From an uncultured Candidatus Saccharibacteria bacterium (GTDB lineage: Bacteria > Patescibacteriota > Minisyncoccia > Phycocordibacterales > JAACPR01), in NCBI GenBank assembly GCA_964574865.1, contig CAZNOT010000001.1, positions 1 through 61,611 on the forward strand: a stretch of 61,611 nucleotides of DNA. Direction: 5' to 3'. The notes beneath the pieces were generated by a model. The model saw nothing but the letters and a program-made list of their open reading frames with translations. It searched no databases and was not told where the DNA came from. Below are positions 6,158 through 51,474 of the stretch, in pieces. Numbering within the stretch: position 1 is the stretch's first letter; each line of letters begins with the position of its first letter. Made by a program: the position numbers and the translations under genes.

Positions 6158-7650
6158 CAGAGAGCGCCAAAAAGAGCCGCCGCGACAGGCCGAATTCCGG
6201 CTTCACGCTCGTCGAACTCCTGGTGGTAATCGCCATCATTGGCGTAGTCGCCTCAATCTCGATCATCGCGACGGTGACCTACCGCGAGAAGGCCCAAGCC
6301 GCGCGCGTGGCGCAAGAGGTCGCGAACTTCCAGAAGGCGGTGGCGGTGTACTACTCGGAGAACCAGAGGTACCCAGACCCAATTAACTCCAACTACGCAG
6401 AAGCCTGCTACCAGAGCGGCACGCTGGTGAACGGCACGCCGCAAAAGTGCTGCGTTAGCCAGGAGGGCTGCACTTACGCCGGTGAGGATTACGCCACGCT
6501 AGAAGGCGGAGACTTCGCCGCCGCCGCGCGCACGCCCCGGTGGCTCACGTACCTCATCGGCGAGACAGCCCACGCTATATTCGGCGGCTCCATGCCGAGC
6601 TTCCTCACCGAAGCGCCGGCCGTCGCTGGCTACAAGGGCGTCTTCTACGAGTGCGCGTCCGCGGCCTGCACGAACGCTTACGTGTACTTCTCGGTCCCCC
6701 TGACGCTCGACAGCTGCACGCGCGGCGTCGTCCACGGCGGAGGCGATTTCTTCGGCGTCTGCGCCCAGGACATCACCGGCGGCAACATTGACGGATCGTC
6801 GGGTAGCGGGGAGACGGAAAATTGCGCCAACACGATAGATGACGACGGCGACGGCGCGACGGACTGCGAGGACGCGGACTGCGACTCGCACCCCTCGTGC
6901 GCCGGCGGCGAAAACTGCTCAACCGCGGACGACGAAGACGGAGACGGCTTCGGCCAGTGCGACGATTCGAGCTGCTTCGGCAACGCCACGTACTGCGCGA
7001 CCGAGACCGCGAGTGGCGGCTCGTGCTCGGACGGCAACGACAGCGACGGCGACGGCGCGACGGACTGCGAGGACGCGGACTGCGACTCGCACCCCTCGTG
7101 CGCCGGCGGCGAAAACTGCGGCAACGACGCCGACGACGACGGCGACGGCGCGACGGACTGCGAGGACGCGGACTGCGCCGAGACCGAACGCTGCGCTGGC
7201 GTCGAGGTTTCCTGCAACGATTCGTCGGACAACGACGGCGACGGCGCGACGGACTGCGAGGACGCGGACTGCGCCGGATACCCGTCCTGCGCGCCGCCAG
7301 AAGACTGCGGCAACGGCGCCGACGACGACGGCGACGGCGCGACGGACTGCGAGGACGCGGACTGCGAGAGCGCCTCTGGTTACTGCGACTGCGCGTGCGA
7401 GACGAACGAGTGCGGGCCGGGCAGCGCCCCCTGCTACCCGGGAGGCGACCCAATGAGCTGCGAAGACGGGAATTACGACGATCCCTGCTACCCGAACGGC
7501 GACCCGATGAACTGCGGCGAAGACCTCACCTCACCTTGCGAAACGAACGATTGCTACATTTACAGCAATGACCCGTGCGAGACGAACGAGTGCGGGCCGG
7601 GCAGCGCCCCCTGCTACCCGGGAGGCGACCCAATGAGCTGCAGCTGCTAG
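6154..7650 (+). CDS. type IV pilin-like protein with C-terminal Cys/Asp-rich repeat modules
   Basis: The N-terminus has the prepilin cleavage/methylation signature (SGFTLVELLVVIAIIGVVASI). The C-terminal half is built of repeated NxDDDGDGATDCEDADC modules and two CETNECGPGSAPCYPGGDPMSC modules. Confidence 0.8.
   Translation: MTESAKKSRRDRPNSGFTLVELLVVIAIIGVVASISIIATVTYREKAQAARVAQEVANFQKAVAVYYSENQRYPDPINSNYAEACYQSGTLVNGTPQKCCVSQEGCTYAGEDYATLEGGDFAAAARTPRWLTYLIGETAHAIFGGSMPSFLTEAPAVAGYKGVFYECASAACTNAYVYFSVPLTLDSCTRGVVHGGGDFFGVCAQDITGGNIDGSSGSGETENCANTIDDDGDGATDCEDADCDSHPSCAGGENCSTADDEDGDGFGQCDDSSCFGNATYCATETASGGSCSDGNDSDGDGATDCEDADCDSHPSCAGGENCGNDADDDGDGATDCEDADCAETERCAGVEVSCNDSSDNDGDGATDCEDADCAGYPSCAPPEDCGNGADDDGDGATDCEDADCESASGYCDCACETNECGPGSAPCYPGGDPMSCEDGNYDDPCYPNGDPMNCGEDLTSPCETNDCYIYSNDPCETNECGPGSAPCYPGGDPMSCSC
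6844..7367 (+). repeat. five nucleotide-identical 40-nt copies (two extended to 75 nt) inside the pilin-like gene
   Basis: The sequence gacggcgacggcgcgacggactgcgaggacgcggactgcg starts at about 6844, 7045, 7138, 7234 and 7328. The copies at 6844-6918 and 7045-7119 are identical over 75 nt. Confidence 0.85.
7396..7641 (+). repeat. two identical 66-nt copies (7396-7461 and 7576-7641) at the 3' end of the pilin-like gene
   Basis: The sequence tgcgagacgaacgagtgcgggccgggcagcgccccctgctacccgggaggcgacccaatgagctgc occurs twice, 180 nt apart. Confidence 0.9.
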
Positions 7651-10499: not shown

Positions 10500-10597
10500 G
10501 GTGTTCTCATCGCCGGCTAATCGACGGCAATTCTAGCAAGGAAAAACACCCGCCGGGCGTCGCTCTTTCAGGCGGCAACCGCGCGGCAGCGGTCGGG

Positions 10598-10695
10598 GAC
10601 GACAGTCTCGGGCGAGACGAAACGAAAAAGCCCCGACGGTGTACGCGTGTACTCCGAGGGGCTTTTTCGTTTGTCGCAGCCGAGAATGGAGTTCC
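10598..10695 (-). repeat. terminator-associated repeat, copy T1 (after 5S rRNA)
   Basis: It aligns over about 100 nt, with only scattered mismatches, to 26084-26183. A long A/T-flanked hairpin carries the tip gacggtgtacgcgtgtactccgagg (10635-10658). Confidence 0.8.
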
Positions 10696-10711
10696 CGACC
10701 TCGAATGTTCT

Positions 10712-10826
10712 GTACTGGCGGCTAGCTACTCTCCCGAGCAAAGCTCAGTACCATCGCCGCTACGGTGCTTAACTGCCGTGTTCGGAATGGGAACGGGTGT
10801 TTCCACCGCGCCGAGCCACCAGAACG
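10712..10826 (-). rRNA. rrf: 5S rRNA
   Basis: The reverse complement reads ...CTGGTGGCTCGGCGCGGTGGAAACACCCGTTCCCATTCCGAACACGGCAGTTAAGC...GGGAGAGTAGCTAGCCGCCAG, with terminal helix I pairing. The ends are accurate to within a few nt. Confidence 0.85.
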
Positions 10827-10954
10827 CAACATTCGATATTTTTGAAAAGTTTTTGGCGCGTGCCCTGGGCACGACCAACACTTATTCCGACGCGCGCCGT
10901 CAGATTTTTTCTGACGGAGCGATACCCATAAACGCAATTGTGATTTCCAACTTC

Positions 10955-14328
<3,374 letters not shown>

Positions 14329-14602
14329 GGAAAGCTGAAAACCACAATTGCGTTTACGGGTATCCCCCTCGCCCGCGAAAAGACCCAAAACGGGTATTCG
14401 GGCGGAGGGCATCGGTTTTTCAAGAAAGCAATCCTGGCAACCGTGTTCTCGTCCGGGACCGAGGAGAAAGCCCGAGCGGGCGCTCTCCTCGGTCCCTAAC
14501 GTCGCTGCCGCCCTTTCGGGCGGCGAGACGAGCTAAAAATAGCCCACCAAGACCTCCCTAAGGAATGCTGCGAATCTTTAACATCCGTATAGAACGCGCG
14601 GA

Positions 14603-14630
14603 ATTATACGCACGGATAGGACGGTGTCAA
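14603..14630 (-). promoter_or_regulatory. rRNA operon promoter (TTGACA-N16-TATAAT)
   Basis: Consensus hexamers lie on the minus strand about 275 nt upstream of the 23S 5' end. AT-rich sequence lies immediately upstream. Confidence 0.65.
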
Positions 14631-25318: not shown

Positions 25319-25912
25319 ATGGCCAACACCCTCGACTACAACGAAATCAAGGAGCGACGCATCATCGTCCTCTACGGCGAGCCGCACGAGGTGCTCTCGT
25401 CGCACATCGCCCGCAAGCAGCAGGGCAAGCCGACCAACCAGGTTAAGCTCCGCAACCTGACCACCGGCGTGACCCGTCAGGAGGTCTTCCGCATGACCGA
25501 CACCGCCGAGGAGGCCGACGTCACCAAGCGCAAGTCCGTCTTCATGTTCAAGAAAGACAACCGCCAGACCAACACCACCGAGTACTGGTTCCACGACGAG
25601 AAGGACCGCTCGAACCGCTTCATGATCTCGGGCGCTGTCATCGAGGAGAAGGCGAAGTTCCTCAAGGAGGGCACGCTCGTCGACGCCGTCTTCTTCAACG
25701 AGGACCGCGTCATCAGCGTGAACCTGCCGGTGAAGATGGACCTCAAGGTCGTCGACGCCCCCGCGGCCGTGAAGGGCGACACCGCCCGCGGCGGCGGCAC
25801 CAAGGCCGCGATCCTCGAGACCGGCGCGAGCATCCAGGTTCCCCTCTTCATCGCCGAGGGCGACGTGATTCGGGTGAACACCGAGACCGAGGAGTACGTA
25901 GAAAGGGCTTAG
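25319..25912 (+). CDS. efp: elongation factor P
   Basis: The 197-aa protein has the typical EF-P N-terminus with the loop ARKQQGKPTNQVKLRNL, followed by OB domains. Confidence 0.9.
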   Translation: MANTLDYNEIKERRIIVLYGEPHEVLSSHIARKQQGKPTNQVKLRNLTTGVTRQEVFRMTDTAEEADVTKRKSVFMFKKDNRQTNTTEYWFHDEKDRSNRFMISGAVIEEKAKFLKEGTLVDAVFFNEDRVISVNLPVKMDLKVVDAPAAVKGDTARGGGTKAAILETGASIQVPLFIAEGDVIRVNTETEEYVERA

Positions 25913-25926
25913 CCTTCGTCCGCGGG

Positions 25927-26027
25927 AAACTCCATTCGCCGTTAAAAACCGCCTCCTACGCCTCGGAGTACATGCGTACACCGTCCGGCTAGGGAGAGCG
26001 GTTTTTTCCTGGCGACTGTCGCCTCCG
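25927..26027 (+). repeat. terminator-associated repeat, copy T2 (after efp, plus orientation)
   Basis: It reads ACTCCATTC...AAAAACCGCCTCC-[CCTCGGAGTACATGCGTACACCGTCCGG]-GGGAGAGCGGTTTTTT...CGACTGTCGCC. This is the same element as T1/T3 in the opposite orientation, matching the orientation of the upstream gene. Confidence 0.75.
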
Positions 26028-26083
26028 TGCCAGCTTTAGCTAAATACAGGCGGAACGAGCCGCAAGCTCGGCCAGGCTGCAAA

Positions 26084-26183
26084 GGCGACAGTCGGAGGCG
26101 AGACGGAACGAAAAAAGCCCGACCGCGTACGCATGTACGCCGAGGGCTTTTTCGTTCGTCGCAGCCCCGAATGGAGTCTGGAA
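26084..26183 (-). repeat. terminator-associated repeat, copy T3 (after rpsR)
   Basis: It abuts the rpsR stop codon. The tip reads gaccgcgtacgcatgtacgccgagg (26121-26145). Confidence 0.8.
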
Positions 26184-26390
26184 CTACCGCGCCACGAAGG
26201 GCAAAAGACCCATGAAGCGAGCGCGCTTGATCGCGTCCGAGAGCTGGCGCTGCATCTTGGAGGACACGCCCGTGCGGGTGCCCGAGAGAATGCGGCCGTG
26301 CGGGTTAATAAACTTGCGGAGCACCTCGACGTCCTTGTAGTCGATGAAGGTGATCCCGTGCTGCTTGAAGAAGCAATCGTTGCGGTTCAT
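26184..26390 (-). CDS. rpsR: 30S ribosomal protein S18
   Basis: The 68-aa protein reads FIDYKDVEVLRKFINPHGRILSGTRTGVSSKMQRQLSDAIKRARFMGLLPF. Confidence 0.9.
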   Translation of the reverse strand: MNRNDCFFKQHGITFIDYKDVEVLRKFINPHGRILSGTRTGVSSKMQRQLSDAIKRARFMGLLPFVAR

Positions 26391-28297: not shown

Positions 28298-29740
28298 CTA
28301 CGCTTCGACGCGGGGGTAAATCGGCTCGGGCTTCGCGTTGGCGCGCAGCGCGGCGAGCACAGCGGCGGCGCCCTTGGGGACGATAGGCTCGGCCATGCGG
28401 GCGATTTCGAAGAGGGACTGGCGCATCTCGGCGAGGAGGACCTTCGCGCGCGGGAGGTCGGTCTTCACGAGCTTGAACGGCTCGGTCTCCTGAATCTTGC
28501 GGTCGAGCGCGCCGATCTGCTCCCAGGCGAAATCGGCCGCGGCCTTGAGGTTCCACGAGTGGAAGCCGGCGAGGTAGACCTCGGGCAGATTGGTCTCGAC
28601 GAGCTCGGAACCTTCCGGCAGGTGCATTTCGGACAGCGTGAGAATGCGGCTCGCGAGGTTGCCGAAGCCGTTCTGGAGGCCCGAGCGGTAGCTCTCGGCG
28701 AAGCGGGCGGCGGTGAAGTCGGAGTCCTCGAAGGGGCTAAGCTCGCGGATGGCGAAGAAGCGGAGCGCGTCGGAGCCGTGCGTCGCGACGAGCGCGAGCG
28801 GGTCGACGACGTTGCCGAGCGTCTTGGACATTTTCTGGCCGTCGGAGGTGATGAATCCGTTGACCACGACGCGGCGGGACGGCGGGAGCTCGGCGGCGAG
28901 GAGCATCGCCTGCCAGCGGAGTGATTGCTGCGCGAGGTTGTCCTTGCCGCAGAACTGCGTCGGCTCCCCTTCCCCCCAGTAGCGGCCGAAGCGCGCCTCG
29001 TCCTCGGGCCAGCCGAGGCACGAGATGTAGTTCACGAGCGCGTCGAACCAGACGTACATCACGTGGTCGGCGTCGTCCGGGACCGGAATCCCCCACGGCA
29101 TCTTGGCCGCGAGGCGCGAGACGCTGAAGTCCTCGAGGCCCTGCGCGATGAGCCCGCGCGCCTCGCGGGCGCGCTCGTCGGGCACGACGAAGTCGTGGTG
29201 CGCGGCGAGCAGATCCGAGAGCTGCTGCGCGAACTTCGAGAACGCGAAGAAGTAGTTTTCCTCTTCAATTTCCTCGGGCACCTTGCCGGGGTGGTGCGGG
29301 CAGCTGCCGTCCGGGAGCAGATCCTTCTCGGTCACGAACATCTCGCAGCCGACGCAGTAGAGGCCGCGGTAGGCTTTCTTGTAGATGTGGCCGTTCGCCG
29401 CGACGCGGCGCCAGAACTCCTGGGCGGCCGTTTTGTGGTGCGCGTCGGTGGTGCGGGTGAAGGCGTCCCAGGTGAGGTCGAGGGAGTCCTTGAGCGCGCG
29501 GAAGGGCGCGGACATCTCGTCGACGAACGCCTGCGGATCCTTCCCCTCCTCCTTCGCACGCTGGAGGATTTTGGTGCCGTGCTCGTCGGTGCCGGTGTTG
29601 AAGAAGACGTCGCGGCCACGAGCGCGGTGGAAACGCGCCGCCGCGTCGGCGCGAACAATCTCCACGGCGAAGCCGATGTGGGGCGCGCCGTTGACGTACG
29701 GGAGCGTGGTGGTGAGGTAGAGGGGCTGGCGATGTTCCAT
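28298..29740 (-). CDS. metG: methionyl-tRNA synthetase (short form)
   Basis: It has a HIGH-type motif (PYVNGAPHIGF), KMSKTLGN, and WFDALVNY. Confidence 0.9.
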   Translation of the reverse strand: MEHRQPLYLTTTLPYVNGAPHIGFAVEIVRADAAARFHRARGRDVFFNTGTDEHGTKILQRAKEEGKDPQAFVDEMSAPFRALKDSLDLTWDAFTRTTDAHHKTAAQEFWRRVAANGHIYKKAYRGLYCVGCEMFVTEKDLLPDGSCPHHPGKVPEEIEEENYFFAFSKFAQQLSDLLAAHHDFVVPDERAREARGLIAQGLEDFSVSRLAAKMPWGIPVPDDADHVMYVWFDALVNYISCLGWPEDEARFGRYWGEGEPTQFCGKDNLAQQSLRWQAMLLAAELPPSRRVVVNGFITSDGQKMSKTLGNVVDPLALVATHGSDALRFFAIRELSPFEDSDFTAARFAESYRSGLQNGFGNLASRILTLSEMHLPEGSELVETNLPEVYLAGFHSWNLKAAADFAWEQIGALDRKIQETEPFKLVKTDLPRAKVLLAEMRQSLFEIARMAEPIVPKGAAAVLAALRANAKPEPIYPRVEA

Positions 29741-29797
29741 AGAACCAGAGATTACGCTGTGGCGGACGCAGCGTCGAGTACCGGGCGGCTAGAGCGT

Positions 29798-29906
29798 GCC
29801 CAAAAGCCCCGCCCAGCGAGGCGCCGAGGAGCGAGAAACCGAGGCGTACTGATGTACGGTGAGGGTTCGCGTGACGACGGCAACGAAGCTGGCGGGGCTT
29901 TTGGGC
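29798..29906 (-). repeat. terminator-associated repeat, copy T4 (after the AI-2E transporter gene)
   Basis: The outer stem GCCCAAAAGCCCCGCC/GGCGGGGCTTTTGGGC encloses cgaggcgtactgatgtacggtgaggg. This matches the family tip pattern GAxGGYGTAC-N3-TGTAC-N3-GAGGG. Confidence 0.6.
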
Positions 29907-29911
29907 ATGCT

Positions 29912-38025: not shown

Positions 38026-41568
<3,543 letters not shown>

Positions 41569-49090: not shown

Positions 49091-49801
49091 ATGGCCCTCT
49101 CCGACCGGCGCATCCTGGAAGAAATGGCGAAGGGCGACATCGTCATTTCGCCGTTCAGGCGCGAGAACCTCGCCACCTCGAGCTACGACCTCACGCTCGG
49201 CGAGTGGTACTACCGCGAGCAGCCGGTCTCGAAGTACCACCACAAGATTTACAACATCTACAACAAGGACCACATCGACCACGTGTGGGGCAAAAAGGCG
49301 CAGCGCGCCGAGCTGGCGAAGGACGCCTTCCGCAAGTACAACCTCGAGTGGCAGGGCATCTCGCCGGAGGACCGCGTGATCTTCCTCGAGCCGGGCGAGA
49401 CGATCCTGGCCCACACCGAGGAGTTCATCGGCGGCAAGAACCACATCACGACAATGATGAAAGCACGCTCGTCGCTCGGCCGCTCGTTCATCGAGGTCTG
49501 CAAGTGCGCCGGCTGGGGCGACGTGGGCTACATCAACCGCTGGACAATGGAGATTACGAACAACTCCAAGCACTACTCGATTCCGCTGATCGTTGGCCGC
49601 CGCATCGCGCAGCTCATCTTCTTTGAGACCGGGCCGATCATCGGCGACGATTACACAGCCAAGGGAAAGTACAACCCGGCGGGCTCGGTCGCCACGCTCC
49701 GGAAGCTCTGGAAGCCGAGCGCCATGCTCCCCCGCCTGGACCAGGACCGCGACGCGCTGAAATCGAACGCGCCGAAGGCGAAGAAAAAGTCTGGCCGCTA
49801 G
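49091..49801 (+). CDS. dcd: dCTP deaminase / dUTPase-superfamily protein
   Basis: It contains MALSDRRILEEM...ISPF...SSYDLTLG, KARSSLGRSFIEV, and GWGDVGYINRWTMEITNNS...IAQLIFFE. Confidence 0.8.
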   Translation: MALSDRRILEEMAKGDIVISPFRRENLATSSYDLTLGEWYYREQPVSKYHHKIYNIYNKDHIDHVWGKKAQRAELAKDAFRKYNLEWQGISPEDRVIFLEPGETILAHTEEFIGGKNHITTMMKARSSLGRSFIEVCKCAGWGDVGYINRWTMEITNNSKHYSIPLIVGRRIAQLIFFETGPIIGDDYTAKGKYNPAGSVATLRKLWKPSAMLPRLDQDRDALKSNAPKAKKKSGR

Positions 49802-50121
49802 GCCCGGCCGAAGACCGTCACCGCGAGGCCGTCTATCCGCTTCTCCACGCGCCCCAGCCGCGTTTTGACGTCCACGACGTCGAGCGCGATTGAATCGACG
49901 CGATCTTCGATGCGATCGAGGCAGCGATCAATTTGCTCGAACCTGGAATCAGTCTGACCGAACTTCGAGTCGATCTGATCAAACTTCGAGTCGACTTGAT
50001 CGAATCGGCGGTAAACGTCGGCGAACCCGCTCGCTACAGCCGCGGCGAGCGGGTCGATTTTAGAATCAACCTTTTCGTCGATGAGGGCGCCGATAGCCTC
50101 GAGGTCTTTTTTGCTCAGCAT
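49798..50121 (-). CDS. small heptad-repeat (coiled-coil) protein
   Basis: The protein reads MLSKKDLEAIGALIDEKVDSKIDP...FDQVDSKFDQIDSKFGQTDSRFEQIDRCLDRIEDRVDSI.... The ATG at 50121 lies 7 nt after a TACAAT box that overlaps the alternative ATG at 50133. Confidence 0.45.
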   Translation of the reverse strand: MLSKKDLEAIGALIDEKVDSKIDPLAAAVASGFADVYRRFDQVDSKFDQIDSKFGQTDSRFEQIDRCLDRIEDRVDSIALDVVDVKTRLGRVEKRIDGLAVTVFGRA

Positions 50122-50210
50122 CGCGCGGGGCATTGTACGCCCGGCAACCCGCGCCGCAGTAAGGTGGATATCACGCCCCGCTAAGCCGTTTTGGATAGGT
50201 TTTCCAAAGG

Positions 50211-50300
50211 CGCAAAAGAAAAACACCCGACAGTGTACGAATGTACCCCGAGGGTGCTTTTCCTTTGCCGCAGCCGGCACTCGGCGATTTCCCCGAAAGG
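50211..50300 (-). repeat. terminator-associated repeat, copy T5 (after rplK)
   Basis: The stem AAAAGAAAAACACCC/GGGTGCTTTTCCTTT has the tip gacagtgtacgaatgtaccccgagg (50229-50253) and the flank gccgcagcc. Confidence 0.7.
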
Positions 50301-50726
50301 TTAACCTTTCACTTCCACGCCCATGGAGCGGCAGGTACCCTCGATGGTGCGCATGGCGGCCTCGACGGACGCGGCGGAGAGGTCCACAGCCTTCTTCTCA
50401 GCGATCTCGCGGATCTTCGCCTTGGTGATGGAGCCAGCCTTGGTGACGAGGTTCTTGCCCGAGCCCTTCTCGAGACCGGCGAGCTTGAGGACGAGGCGGG
50501 ACGCCGGCGGAGTCTTGTACTTCACCTCGTAGGTGCGGTCCTCGAAGACGGTGATGACCACCGGCACGATGTCGCCCATCTTGTCCTTGGTCTCGTCGTT
50601 GAACTTCTTAGTGAATTCACCGATGTTGATGCCGGCCTGACCGAGCGCGGGGCCGATAGGAGGCGCAGGGGTGGCCTTCCCGGCCGGGATCTGGAGCTTG
50701 ACGAGCTTGGTGATTTTCTTGGCCAT
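50301..50726 (-). CDS. rplK: 50S ribosomal protein L11
   Basis: It reads [43 protein letters not shown].... Confidence 0.95.
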
Positions 50727-50825
50727 AAGTTTGTGCCGGCGAACCTTACCTAAATCGGTCTAATAAATCAACCGCCCTCCCCAACCCATCTCCTTTGAGT
50801 AACGCCCGGCTCGCCGGGGCCGAGC

Positions 50826-50928
50826 GAGAAAGGTTTTGGCCGGCCGACGGTGTACGCACGTACTCCGAGGGCGAGCAAAACCTTTCGCAGCCGGCATCCG
50901 GCAGCCGCCCGGCTAACGCTTAGCGCGC
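50826..50928 (-). repeat. terminator-associated repeat, copy T6 (between nusG and rplK)
   Basis: The stem GAGAAAGGTTTTG.../...CAAAACCTTTC has the tip gacggtgtacgcacgtactccgagg (50846-50870) and the flank tcgcagcc. Confidence 0.7.
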
Positions 50929-51474
50929 CTAAATCTTCTTTACCTGGAGGTAATCGAGCTCGATGGGAGTCTCGCGACCGAACATCGATACCAAAACCCT
51001 CAACTTGCCGCGCTCGGCGTCCACCTTCTCAACCTTGCCCTCGAGCTCCTTGAACGGACCGTCCGTGACGATGACCGGGTCGCCCTCGTCCACGTCGATC
51101 GTGTGCTTCGGAGCCTCGCCCGTCGAGCGGGAGAGGATGGCCTTCACCTCGGCCTCTGAGAGCGGCACGGGCACGACGCCAGAGCCGACGAAGCCGGTCA
51201 CGCGCGGCGTGTTACGGACGACGTACCAGGACTCGTCGGTGACGGCCATGTCCACGAGCACGTAGCCCGGGTAGACCTTCTCCTCGACCTCGACGCGCTT
51301 CTGCCCCTTGATCTTGACCTTCTTCTCCTTGGGGACAATCACGGCGAAAATTTTGTCCTCCATGCCCAGCGACTCGATGCGCTGCTGGAGGTTGCGCGCA
51401 ACCGCGTCCTCGTAGCCCGCGTAGGTGTGAATCGCGTACCAGTGCCGATCGCCGCTCCCCTGCTGTTTAGCCAT
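50929..51474 (-). CDS. nusG: transcription termination/antitermination factor NusG
   Basis: It has an NGN domain (WYAIHTYAGYEDAV) and a KOW domain (GDPVIVTDGPFKELEGKVEKV). Confidence 0.95.
   Translation of the reverse strand: MAKQQGSGDRHWYAIHTYAGYEDAVARNLQQRIESLGMEDKIFAVIVPKEKKVKIKGQKRVEVEEKVYPGYVLVDMAVTDESWYVVRNTPRVTGFVGSGVVPVPLSEAEVKAILSRSTGEAPKHTIDVDEGDPVIVTDGPFKELEGKVEKVDAERGKLRVLVSMFGRETPIELDYLQVKKI

Follow-up and report, generated by a model that had tools for sequence, protein, structure and literature searches.

Why should one structured sequence stand behind six different transcription units, always in the direction of the gene that precedes it? The question is raised by a stretch of 61,611 nucleotides (contig CAZNOT010000001.1, hereafter the window), in which a family of elements of about 100 nt, numbered T1 to T6 along the window, shares a hairpin tip built on GTACNNNNGTAC (GTAC-N4-GTAC). 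By its NusG, whose nearest proteins are 88-90% identical and whose named matches belong to Paceibacterota, Wolfebacteria and Taylorbacteria, the window is assigned to Candidatus Paceibacterota, within the candidate phyla radiation. A preliminary description had placed the copies 3' of the 5S rRNA gene, efp, rpsR, an AI-2E transporter gene, rplK and nusG, each oriented with its upstream gene, and all six copies, their gene assignments and their orientations were confirmed (Table 1). The sequence GTACNNNNGTAC occurs six times in the 61.6 kb against 0.16 expected occurrences in dinucleotide-preserving shuffles, none of which reached six (0/100). A 27-nt consensus of the core, allowing up to 3 mismatches, matched five copies and nothing else in the window (0 expected); the copy it missed, T4, is divergent, yet it was recovered by a covariance model of 37 positions (A2/R1, hereafter R1) built from the window copies and from copies of other genomes. 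Run on the window with filters off, R1 returned the same six copies at 26-45 bits, with a runner-up at 15 bits, and scored the opposite strand of each copy at 11-14 bits only; the copies therefore constitute a discrete family with a defined polarity.

Folding yields, for every copy, a long hairpin that carries the core at its tip (z = -2.6 to -8.1). All six are sense to the upstream unit, with the core starting 39-59 nt past the stop codon or the 5S end, and at a density of about 1 per 10 kb none was detected by R1 inside a gene or outside a hairpin context. T2 and T3, already described as convergent, stand face to face about 60 nt apart, each still sense to its own gene; such a pair shares one replication direction, which argues that RNA or transcription matters, and the orientation would not be explained by replication direction. 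We interpret the six copies, with a probability of roughly 0.55, as structured palindromes about 100 nt long that are repeated, non-autonomous and similar in behavior to repetitive extragenic palindromes (REP) and miniature inverted-repeat transposable elements (MITEs); the copies would supply or replace intrinsic terminators, and their tip would be the recognition site of a putative trans-acting factor.

Table 1. Elements T1 to T6 and their cores in the window (fold, R1: evidence from folding and from the covariance model; core scores from R1).
Copy	Part	Position	Strand	Gene context	Remarks
T1	full hairpin element	10591..10700	-	3' of 5S rRNA gene (10713-10823)	fold, R1; box A ACTCCATTC, box B GGCTGCGAC, A-tract, core tip, U-tract, box A' GACTGTCG
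T1	core CCTCGGAGTACACGCGTACACCGTCGG	10633..10659	-		GTACNNNNGTAC from 10641; A.A mismatch; 0 mismatches to consensus; 39.2 bits
T2	element	25921..26029	+	3' of efp (25319-25912)	fold; T2-type subfamily; flanks ACTCCATTCG ... GGCGACTGTCGCCTCC
T2	core	25961..25987	+		GTACNNNNGTAC from 25968; consensus match; 39.9 bits
T3	element	26082..26183	-	3' of rpsR (26184-26390)	fold; 84% identical to T1
T3	core	26119..26145	-		GTACNNNNGTAC from 26127; C-G pair at mismatch position; 44.1 bits
T4	divergent element	29797..29907	-	AI-2E transporter gene (stop 29912) / metG (28298-29740)	fold; outer stem long, near-perfect
T4	core variant CCCTCACCGTACATCAGTACGCCTCGG	29839..29865	-		GTACNNNNGTAC from 29846; 26.4 bits
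T5	element	50210..50278	-	3' of rplK (50301-50726)	fold, R1; box B, A-rich arm, core, U-rich arm, then TTTTTCTTTT
T5	core	50227..50253	-		GTACNNNNGTAC from 50235; G.A mismatch; CGG/CUG with G.U pair; 43.6 bits
T6	element	50805..50928	-	nusG (50929-51474) to rplK	fold, R1; T6-type subfamily; no U-tract; flanks CGGCTGCCGGATGCCGGCTGCG ... CTCGCTCGGCCCCGGCGAGCCG
T6	core	50844..50870	-		GTACNNNNGTAC from 50852; consensus match; 45.3 bits

The outermost part of the element is an irregular helix with conserved internal loops, formed by boxes A/A' and/or B. T1 and T3 carry box A plus box B (GGCUGCGAC / GUCUCGCC); in T2-type copies GGGAGGC-UC-CA-U-UCG pairs with CGA-C-UG-UC-GCCUCC, and in T6-type copies the 5' side reads CGGCUGCCGRAUGCCGGCUGCG and the 3' side CUCGCUCGGCCYCGGCGAGCCG. 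The shared 5' flanks pointed out earlier are GGCTGCG in four copies (T1, T3, T5 and T6) and ACTCCATTC in three (T1, T2 and T3). Above the outer helix, the middle stem has an A-rich 5' arm and a U-rich 3' arm, whose sequence varies among copies while the pairing is always retained. This build of A-rich arm, GC stem and U-rich arm makes the inner part, by its sequence, a canonical intrinsic terminator in most copies, and it takes the place held by plain terminators in relatives. The preliminary description had likened the stem of every copy to a terminator: the comparison holds for T1, T2, T3 and T5, in which a run of at least 5 U follows directly on the inner stem, but it is weak for T4, with only 4 U, and fails for T6, with none; most copies of relatives also have the sequence of an intrinsic terminator. 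Like such terminators, the inner module of T1, T2, T3, T5 and most relatives consists of a GC-rich stem and 4-6 U; unlike them, the elements are capped by an invariant tip of 27 nt, possess conserved outer boxes and measure about 100 nt instead of 25-45 nt. About 10 plain terminators (hairpin plus TTTTCTTTT, without the core) are found in the same window, and the U-run of T1, T2, T3 and T5 is comparable to theirs.

The apical module, C-CUCGG-N-GUAC-NNNN-GUAC-N-CNG-UC-GG-G, consists from the tip downward of a free tetraloop, a 4-bp GUAC/GUAC helix, a purine-purine mismatch or a pair, a CGG/CCG helix, a U vs UC internal loop and CC/GG. At the mismatch position T1, T2 and T6 have A.A, T5 has G.A and T3 has C-G, in agreement with what had been read earlier for T1, T3 and T6. 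Two tip alleles occur on the same scaffolds, type I being CGG-A-GUAC / GUAC-A-CCG and type II CG-C-CGUAC / GUACG-U-CG, with the single mismatch shifted one step relative to type I. Among 16 distinct Paceibacteria copies, 85.8% of the cells of the apical helix are paired, 5 of the 11 apical pairs show double-sided changes (e.g., U-A to G-C in locus L051 and C-G to G-C in L129), and covariation of the core is 0.126 vs 0.058 in shuffled alignments, with 1 of 500 shuffles reaching the observed value. The tip helix, at which the preliminary description had hinted, is thus maintained, but covariation is modest and the tip is conserved mainly in sequence, the conserved letters lying in the stems and the loop being free. 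Pairs of the G.U kind number 34 in the sense and 15 in the antisense strand. Folding energy was rejected as a strand discriminator, because in 14 of 16 copies the antisense fold comes out as slightly more stable and only the G.U count favors the sense strand.

Conservation in stems and not in the loop, together with a core that is a near-perfect dyad (CGG-N-GTAC-N4-GTAC-N-CCG, 20 bp), would also suit a site read at the DNA level, such as an uptake signal embedded as an inverted repeat in terminators in the style of Neisseria and Haemophilus, the operator of a dimeric regulator, or a cruciform or single-stranded DNA recombinase site. Dependence on DNA uptake is assumed for bacteria of the candidate phyla radiation, and pilin-like proteins are among the products of the window. 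We nevertheless consider such a site very improbable. Uptake signals (DUS/USS) are about ten times denser, at about 1 per kb, and occur in both orientations and also within genes, whereas the 6 copies in 61 kb are all intergenic and all in hairpins; the U vs UC asymmetry and the strict gene orientation, including that of T2 and T3, argue against a symmetric double-stranded DNA site; and the copies stand at gene ends, not at promoters.

Similarity extends well beyond the core. T1 and T3, for which an alignment over about 100 nt with scattered mismatches had been reported, are identical at 81 of 96 positions (84%), with a score of 62 against a shuffle maximum of 10, and copies from unrelated loci, within and between genomes, are in general 82-89% identical over about 100 nt: T2 is 88% identical to the copy 3' of rpsR in locus L146, and T6 is 82% identical to the copy 3' of the gene for the ribonucleotide reductase (RNR) small subunit in L117. 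Alignment scores of these three subfamily pairs range from 47 to 69, against shuffle maxima of 9-13.

Syntenic loci of relatives were recovered through exact-protein look-ups, and the window copies together with those of L117, L120, L125, L129, L131, L132, L051, L141 and L146 make up a set of 18 Paceibacteria copies. All of them (18/18) are sense to the upstream gene, and their cores begin 38-59 nt past the stop codon or 5S end. The upstream units include 5S, rplK, rpsR, rpsG, efp, frr and nusG, besides genes that encode the RNR small subunit, DsbA and a pilin-like protein. Occupancy of orthologous sites is variable. At the 3' end of nusG, where the window has T6, L117 (NusG 88% identical) has an orthologous copy whose arms are altered but still pair and whose tip is of type II; L120 (81%) shows instead a perfect palindrome of 27 bp, unrelated to the element, and L123 (77%) has nothing there and no copy in 15 kb. 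The palindrome of L120 (10550-10640, in the nusG-rplK spacer) is a perfect inverted repeat, CTAGCCCGCAAACCAACACCGAGTGTT ... AACACTCGGTGTTGGTTTGCGGGCTAG, and represents a different palindromic element at the T6 site. At the 3' end of rplK, T5 of the window corresponds to plain terminators in L117 and L123 and to a T2-type copy in L120, while the gap between the RNR small subunit and SNase genes is 2 nt in the window vs a 148-nt spacer with a T6-type copy in L117.

The clearest case of turnover is the convergent rpsR/efp spacer, which measures 271 nt in the window, with T3 and T2, and 52 nt in L142, L145 and L147, with one plain bidirectional terminator. These three loci have an identical S18 protein and about 95% nucleotide identity in the flanking genes, and homology ends exactly at both stop codons. 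In L141 and L144 the same spacer holds another subtype 3' of rpsR and an extra small open reading frame (ORF), and in L146 a T2-type copy 3' of rpsR and a different small ORF. The ORFs of L141 (3395-3754, minus strand) and L146 (1384-1740, minus strand), of 119 and 118 amino acids, are unrelated to each other, strain-specific and without Pfam match; the spacer is therefore an insertion hot spot in general. Gain, loss and exchange of elements among close relatives far outpace the divergence of the flanking genes. A REP/MITE-like dispersed repeat, one of the options listed in the preliminary description, agrees with this presence/absence and swapping at orthologous sites and with subfamilies common to unrelated loci. 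In mechanistic terms, the apical hairpin would be the recognition determinant for the putative trans-acting factor, which may be either a nucleic-acid-hairpin-binding enzyme spreading the element or an RNA-binding factor acting at the 3' end. Orientation would be set by transcription, through selection for a function at the mRNA 3' end or through a transcription-coupled preference of insertion.

The core is not confined to Paceibacteria. A scan with the exact pattern CCTCGGNGTACNNNNGTACNCNGTC, covering one genome per GTDB species, returned at least 116 loci. Among the matches listed, about 11 lie inside long ORFs of high-GC genomes, in line with the handful expected by chance, and the remainder are intergenic; about 90 belong to metagenome-assembled genomes (MAGs) of gut Clostridia (Acutalibacteraceae, Oscillospiraceae) and 2 to Paceibacteria MAGs, and single matches come from 2 Deltaproteobacteria MAGs, 1 Granulosicoccus MAG and 1 Fibrobacteres MAG. 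One further listed contig, labeled Gammaproteobacteria, has a copy identical to that of L117 and is probably misbinned. In Clostridia the core forms the tip of several distinct multi-copy hairpin repeat families, some made of 65-70-nt hairpins, at times in tandem arrays with a period of 92 or 106, and others of elements of about 300 nt with several hairpins and compensatory changes across MAG species. Many Clostridia copies lie at contig ends, a position that is the signature of near-identical high-copy repeats. On a crude ORF call the upstream gene of the matches listed, mostly from Clostridia, has the same sense in 60 cases vs the opposite in 15, and convergent settings outnumber divergent ones by 26 to 5. 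The Clostridia elements are also closed by a base, A-run ... GCGCAGA / UCUGCGC ... U-run, and a second module, GGCUGCG paired with CGYCUYGCC, is common to proteobacterial and Paceibacteria copies. The same 19 specified core bases recur across phyla on quite different arms: the sequence of the apical hairpin is kept, and the surrounding parts are lineage- or subfamily-specific.

Some Clostridia loci present further features. In an Acutalibacteraceae MAG (L018, 2555-2631, minus strand) a Gut-1 RNA (RF01706, 79 bits) lies directly 3' of a four-copy tandem array of core hairpins with a period of 92. The elements of about 300 nt at L003 (3455-3740) and L013 (3900-4180) contain promoter-like boxes, e.g., TGCTATAAA, which lies about 20 nt upstream of the core, and TTGAGT...TATAAT. 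They also have an internal terminator-like hairpin, and might give rise to separate small RNAs.

The distribution among phyla bears directly on the idea of a lineage-specific terminator module, also put forward in the preliminary description: the association with terminators stands for most copies, but the restriction to one lineage does not, given that the core recurs in Clostridia, Proteobacteria and Fibrobacteres MAGs. A related explanation would see in the elements a local consensus terminator, homogenized by descent or gene conversion, whose tip has no dedicated partner. The precedent is TRIT of Mycobacterium tuberculosis, a set of 147 conserved terminator-like hairpins in a narrow window at stop codons, for which a factor binding the double-stranded motif was proposed as required (PMC3152330). 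The terminator anatomy of most copies fits this explanation, and the elements resemble TRIT in being hairpins conserved in sequence and structure, present in many copies at a tight distance from the stop codon. TRIT is confined to Mycobacterium, is bidirectional in most cases and lies across the stop codon, centered about 8 nt inside the coding sequence (around position -8) (PMC3152330), while the elements analyzed here begin past the stop codon, are orientation-specific, form subfamilies with extra boxes and have a tip found in other phyla; their host is a member of Paceibacterota. The two are set apart by the description of TRIT and not by a comparison of sequences. We consider a local terminator improbable, because local homogenization cannot explain at least 19 core bases in unrelated phyla with different arms, and because the genome has plain terminators as well, a U-tract is missing from T6-type copies and conserved outer boxes extend beyond the terminator.

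A bolder proposal starts from the shared tip. The sequence CCUCGG-N-GUAC-N4-GUAC-N-CNGUCGG could be a portable recognition module for a putative protein of Paceibacteria, gut Clostridia and some Proteobacteria, and the elements carrying it a new non-autonomous class that colonizes or rebuilds gene 3' ends in the direction of transcription. We hold this for possible but rather doubtful. If true, the elements would be either a transcription-oriented mobile repeat targeting terminators or a new and widespread signal for factor-dependent termination or 3'-end processing.

The strict orientation is also what would be expected of a host-selected, cis-acting RNA motif of 3' untranslated regions, in which a cellular protein binds the apical hairpin and the internal loops and stabilizes, processes or terminates the transcript; dispersed copies would then derive from recruitment and recombination, not from transposition. 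A protein-binding structure in the 3' untranslated region was likewise among the options of the preliminary description, and such a role is putative. Besides the sense orientation of all 18 Paceibacteria copies and of about 80% of the Clostridia copies among the matches listed, this explanation accommodates the narrow distance from the stop codon, the conserved non-Watson-Crick loops (boxes A/A' with UC/UC and U/C, box B, and U/UC under the tip), the excess of sense-strand G.U pairs, the compensatory changes in several hairpins of the Clostridia family of about 300 nt, and the fact that many upstream units are highly expressed (5S, rplK, rpsR, rpsG, efp, frr, nusG and RNR genes). It agrees less well with a distribution that is patchy even in close relatives, as in L123, and with the fast gain and loss at orthologous sites; near-identical high-copy families that break Clostridia assemblies look like proliferation and not like a conserved regulon, and conserved letters that are mostly in Watson-Crick stems, with a free loop, are unusual for RNA-protein recognition. 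We regard a purely cis-acting RNA motif as unlikely, although less so than a local terminator or a DNA site. A mobilization step at the DNA level stays in play because of the conserved letters in Watson-Crick stems, the outer 3' arm past the U-tract and the patchy, burst-like distribution.

Several observations weigh against the interpretation as REP/MITE-like repeats that act as terminators. Comparison of filled and empty sites revealed neither a target-site duplication nor a clean insertion boundary, and the entire rpsR/efp spacer differs from stop codon to stop codon, a pattern that recombinational exchange of alleles could also yield. The center of the elements is conserved and the termini are not, the reverse of the arrangement in a MITE that derives from a transposon and has terminal inverted repeats, and strict sense orientation is not expected of REP/RAYT-type transposition through single-stranded DNA, which is tied to replication. 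The 61-kb window contains housekeeping genes only, without any for a transposase, HUH enzyme or reverse transcriptase, and a Pfam scan of 150 ORFs adjoining elements elsewhere found no recurring domain of these three kinds. As for termination, T6-type copies are not terminators by sequence, since they have no U-tract, and copies with an inner U-tract possess a conserved outer 3' arm downstream of the predicted RNA 3' end; the conservation of this arm is therefore unexplained by termination alone.

Comparison with known repeats gives a similarly divided picture. Like REP, BIME and REPIN sequences, the elements are short imperfect palindromes (27 nt, six in 61 kb, all intergenic, in agreement with the size of about 20-40 nt and the location of REP/REPIN), extragenic and multi-copy, located at gene 3' ends and able to form a hairpin as single-stranded DNA or as RNA. 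Their abundance varies between close strains, as it does for REP and BIME, and the tandem arrays of alternating subtypes at Clostridia loci L018 and L025 recall BIME clusters. Some REP classes have runs of A and T on their flanks and were co-opted for termination (PMC3337134). REPINs have two inverted REPs at the base, whereas here one palindrome stands at the tip of a long hairpin, and the only inverted pair, T2/T3, differs from a REPIN doublet in that both members are complete elements. REP palindromes carry a conserved GT[AG]G tetranucleotide at their 5' foot and are specific to their own RAYT and lineage; here the foot has neither GTAG nor GTGG, the flanks reading C(A/G)C before CCTCGG and GTC before GGG, the orientation is strictly sense to transcription, and the core spans phyla. 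The RAYT gene of REP/REPIN systems, a single-copy gene for an HUH/Y1 transposase with repeats on both sides, was found neither in the window nor among the 150 element-adjacent ORFs of other genomes. A resemblance of box B to the arms of E. coli REP (GAUGCGAC/GUCUUAUC) was set aside as too short to assess and was not counted as evidence.

Correia/NEMIS of Neisseria, ERIC/IRU of enterobacteria and RUP/BOX of Streptococcus are bacterial MITEs with effects at the RNA level and with conserved terminal inverted repeats, accompanied in Correia by target-site duplications. The elements resemble the Correia, ERIC and RUP types in being non-autonomous, 100-150 bp long, intergenic and polymorphic for presence/absence, and in forming a long hairpin when transcribed; they differ in having termini that vary by subfamily (T2-type, T6-type, T5) around an invariant center, with no duplication.

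As stated in the preliminary description, the elements fit no familiar family, and no Rfam, plasmid or phage match of credible strength was obtained. Rfam 15 at gathering threshold recognized only 23S and 5S in the window and nothing on the elements in 12 loci, and by E-value gave only chance microRNA-like matches for T2/T3 and one Clostridia element. Plasmid and phage BLAST with the core gave weak partial matches only (E 0.9 and 4), and viral contigs scanned with the core pattern gave 0 matches. A search for a recurrent neighbor gene, by BLAST clustering of 1068 ORFs, by the Pfam scan of 150 neighboring ORFs and through ten ORFs of "wrong orientation" cases, returned ordinary metabolic genes. 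A metagenome scan anchored on boxes A/A', intended as an unbiased sample of tips, yielded 6 real loci from few samples and 9 chance matches. A link with GTAC avoidance or restriction-modification was rejected, GTAC alone being present at ordinary frequency (197 observed vs 188 expected in the window), and the core has no match to the 23S or 5S rRNA of the window at up to 3 mismatches, which speaks against rRNA mimicry. TIGR arrays are characterized by box C/D motifs (PMC12045711), which are absent from the window copies; TIGR-Tas and CRISPR arrays were rejected on this ground and because copies are dispersed singly and the window has no cas or tas genes.

Genomes of the candidate phyla radiation are small and thought to be poor in repeated or mobile DNA. 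A dynamic repeat family that occupies core-gene ends, among them those of 5S rRNA, ribosomal protein genes, efp and nusG, shows active intergenic turnover in tiny genomes. The near-identical tip on unrelated scaffolds and in different phyla is the unexpected part: it points to a specific, transferable recognition event that is not known to have been described, and makes a concrete search for the partner protein possible. Such a partner, if found, would reveal either a new mobilization mechanism aimed at terminators or a new factor of mRNA 3' ends. In addition, R1 provides a marker of gene ends and of strand for MAGs with poor annotation.

The genes around the elements show other features. In the window, rpsR has ssb and rpsF upstream, secE was assigned along with rplK and nusG, and metG follows the AI-2E transporter gene. 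At 49798-50726, rplK is not followed by rplA but by a small coiled-coil-like ORF, dcd and a thyX-like gene, with the same arrangement in L117, L120 and L123; this may be a Parcubacteria lineage without L1 beside L11. The 23S rRNA match (10952-14330, minus strand) extends over 3379 nt vs a model of 2925 positions, indicating an insertion or intervening sequence of about 450 nt inside the gene; insertions in rRNA are a known feature of the candidate phyla radiation. A perfect TTGACA-16-TATAAT promoter lies about 270 nt upstream of the 23S gene (14603-14630, minus strand), and with no 16S gene or tRNA in the window the 23S-5S pair (10713-14330) looks like an unlinked rRNA operon. A 93-nt tandem repeat of 3.5 copies, rich in Asp, Cys and Gly, was found at 7038-7366 in a protein of 498 aa whose N-terminus has a pilin methylation motif. 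Finally, an ORF for an isoleucyl/valyl-type tRNA synthetase (38026-41568, minus strand, 1180 aa) carries a histidine-phosphatase domain (PF00300, residues 505-673) inserted in the middle of its catalytic domain.

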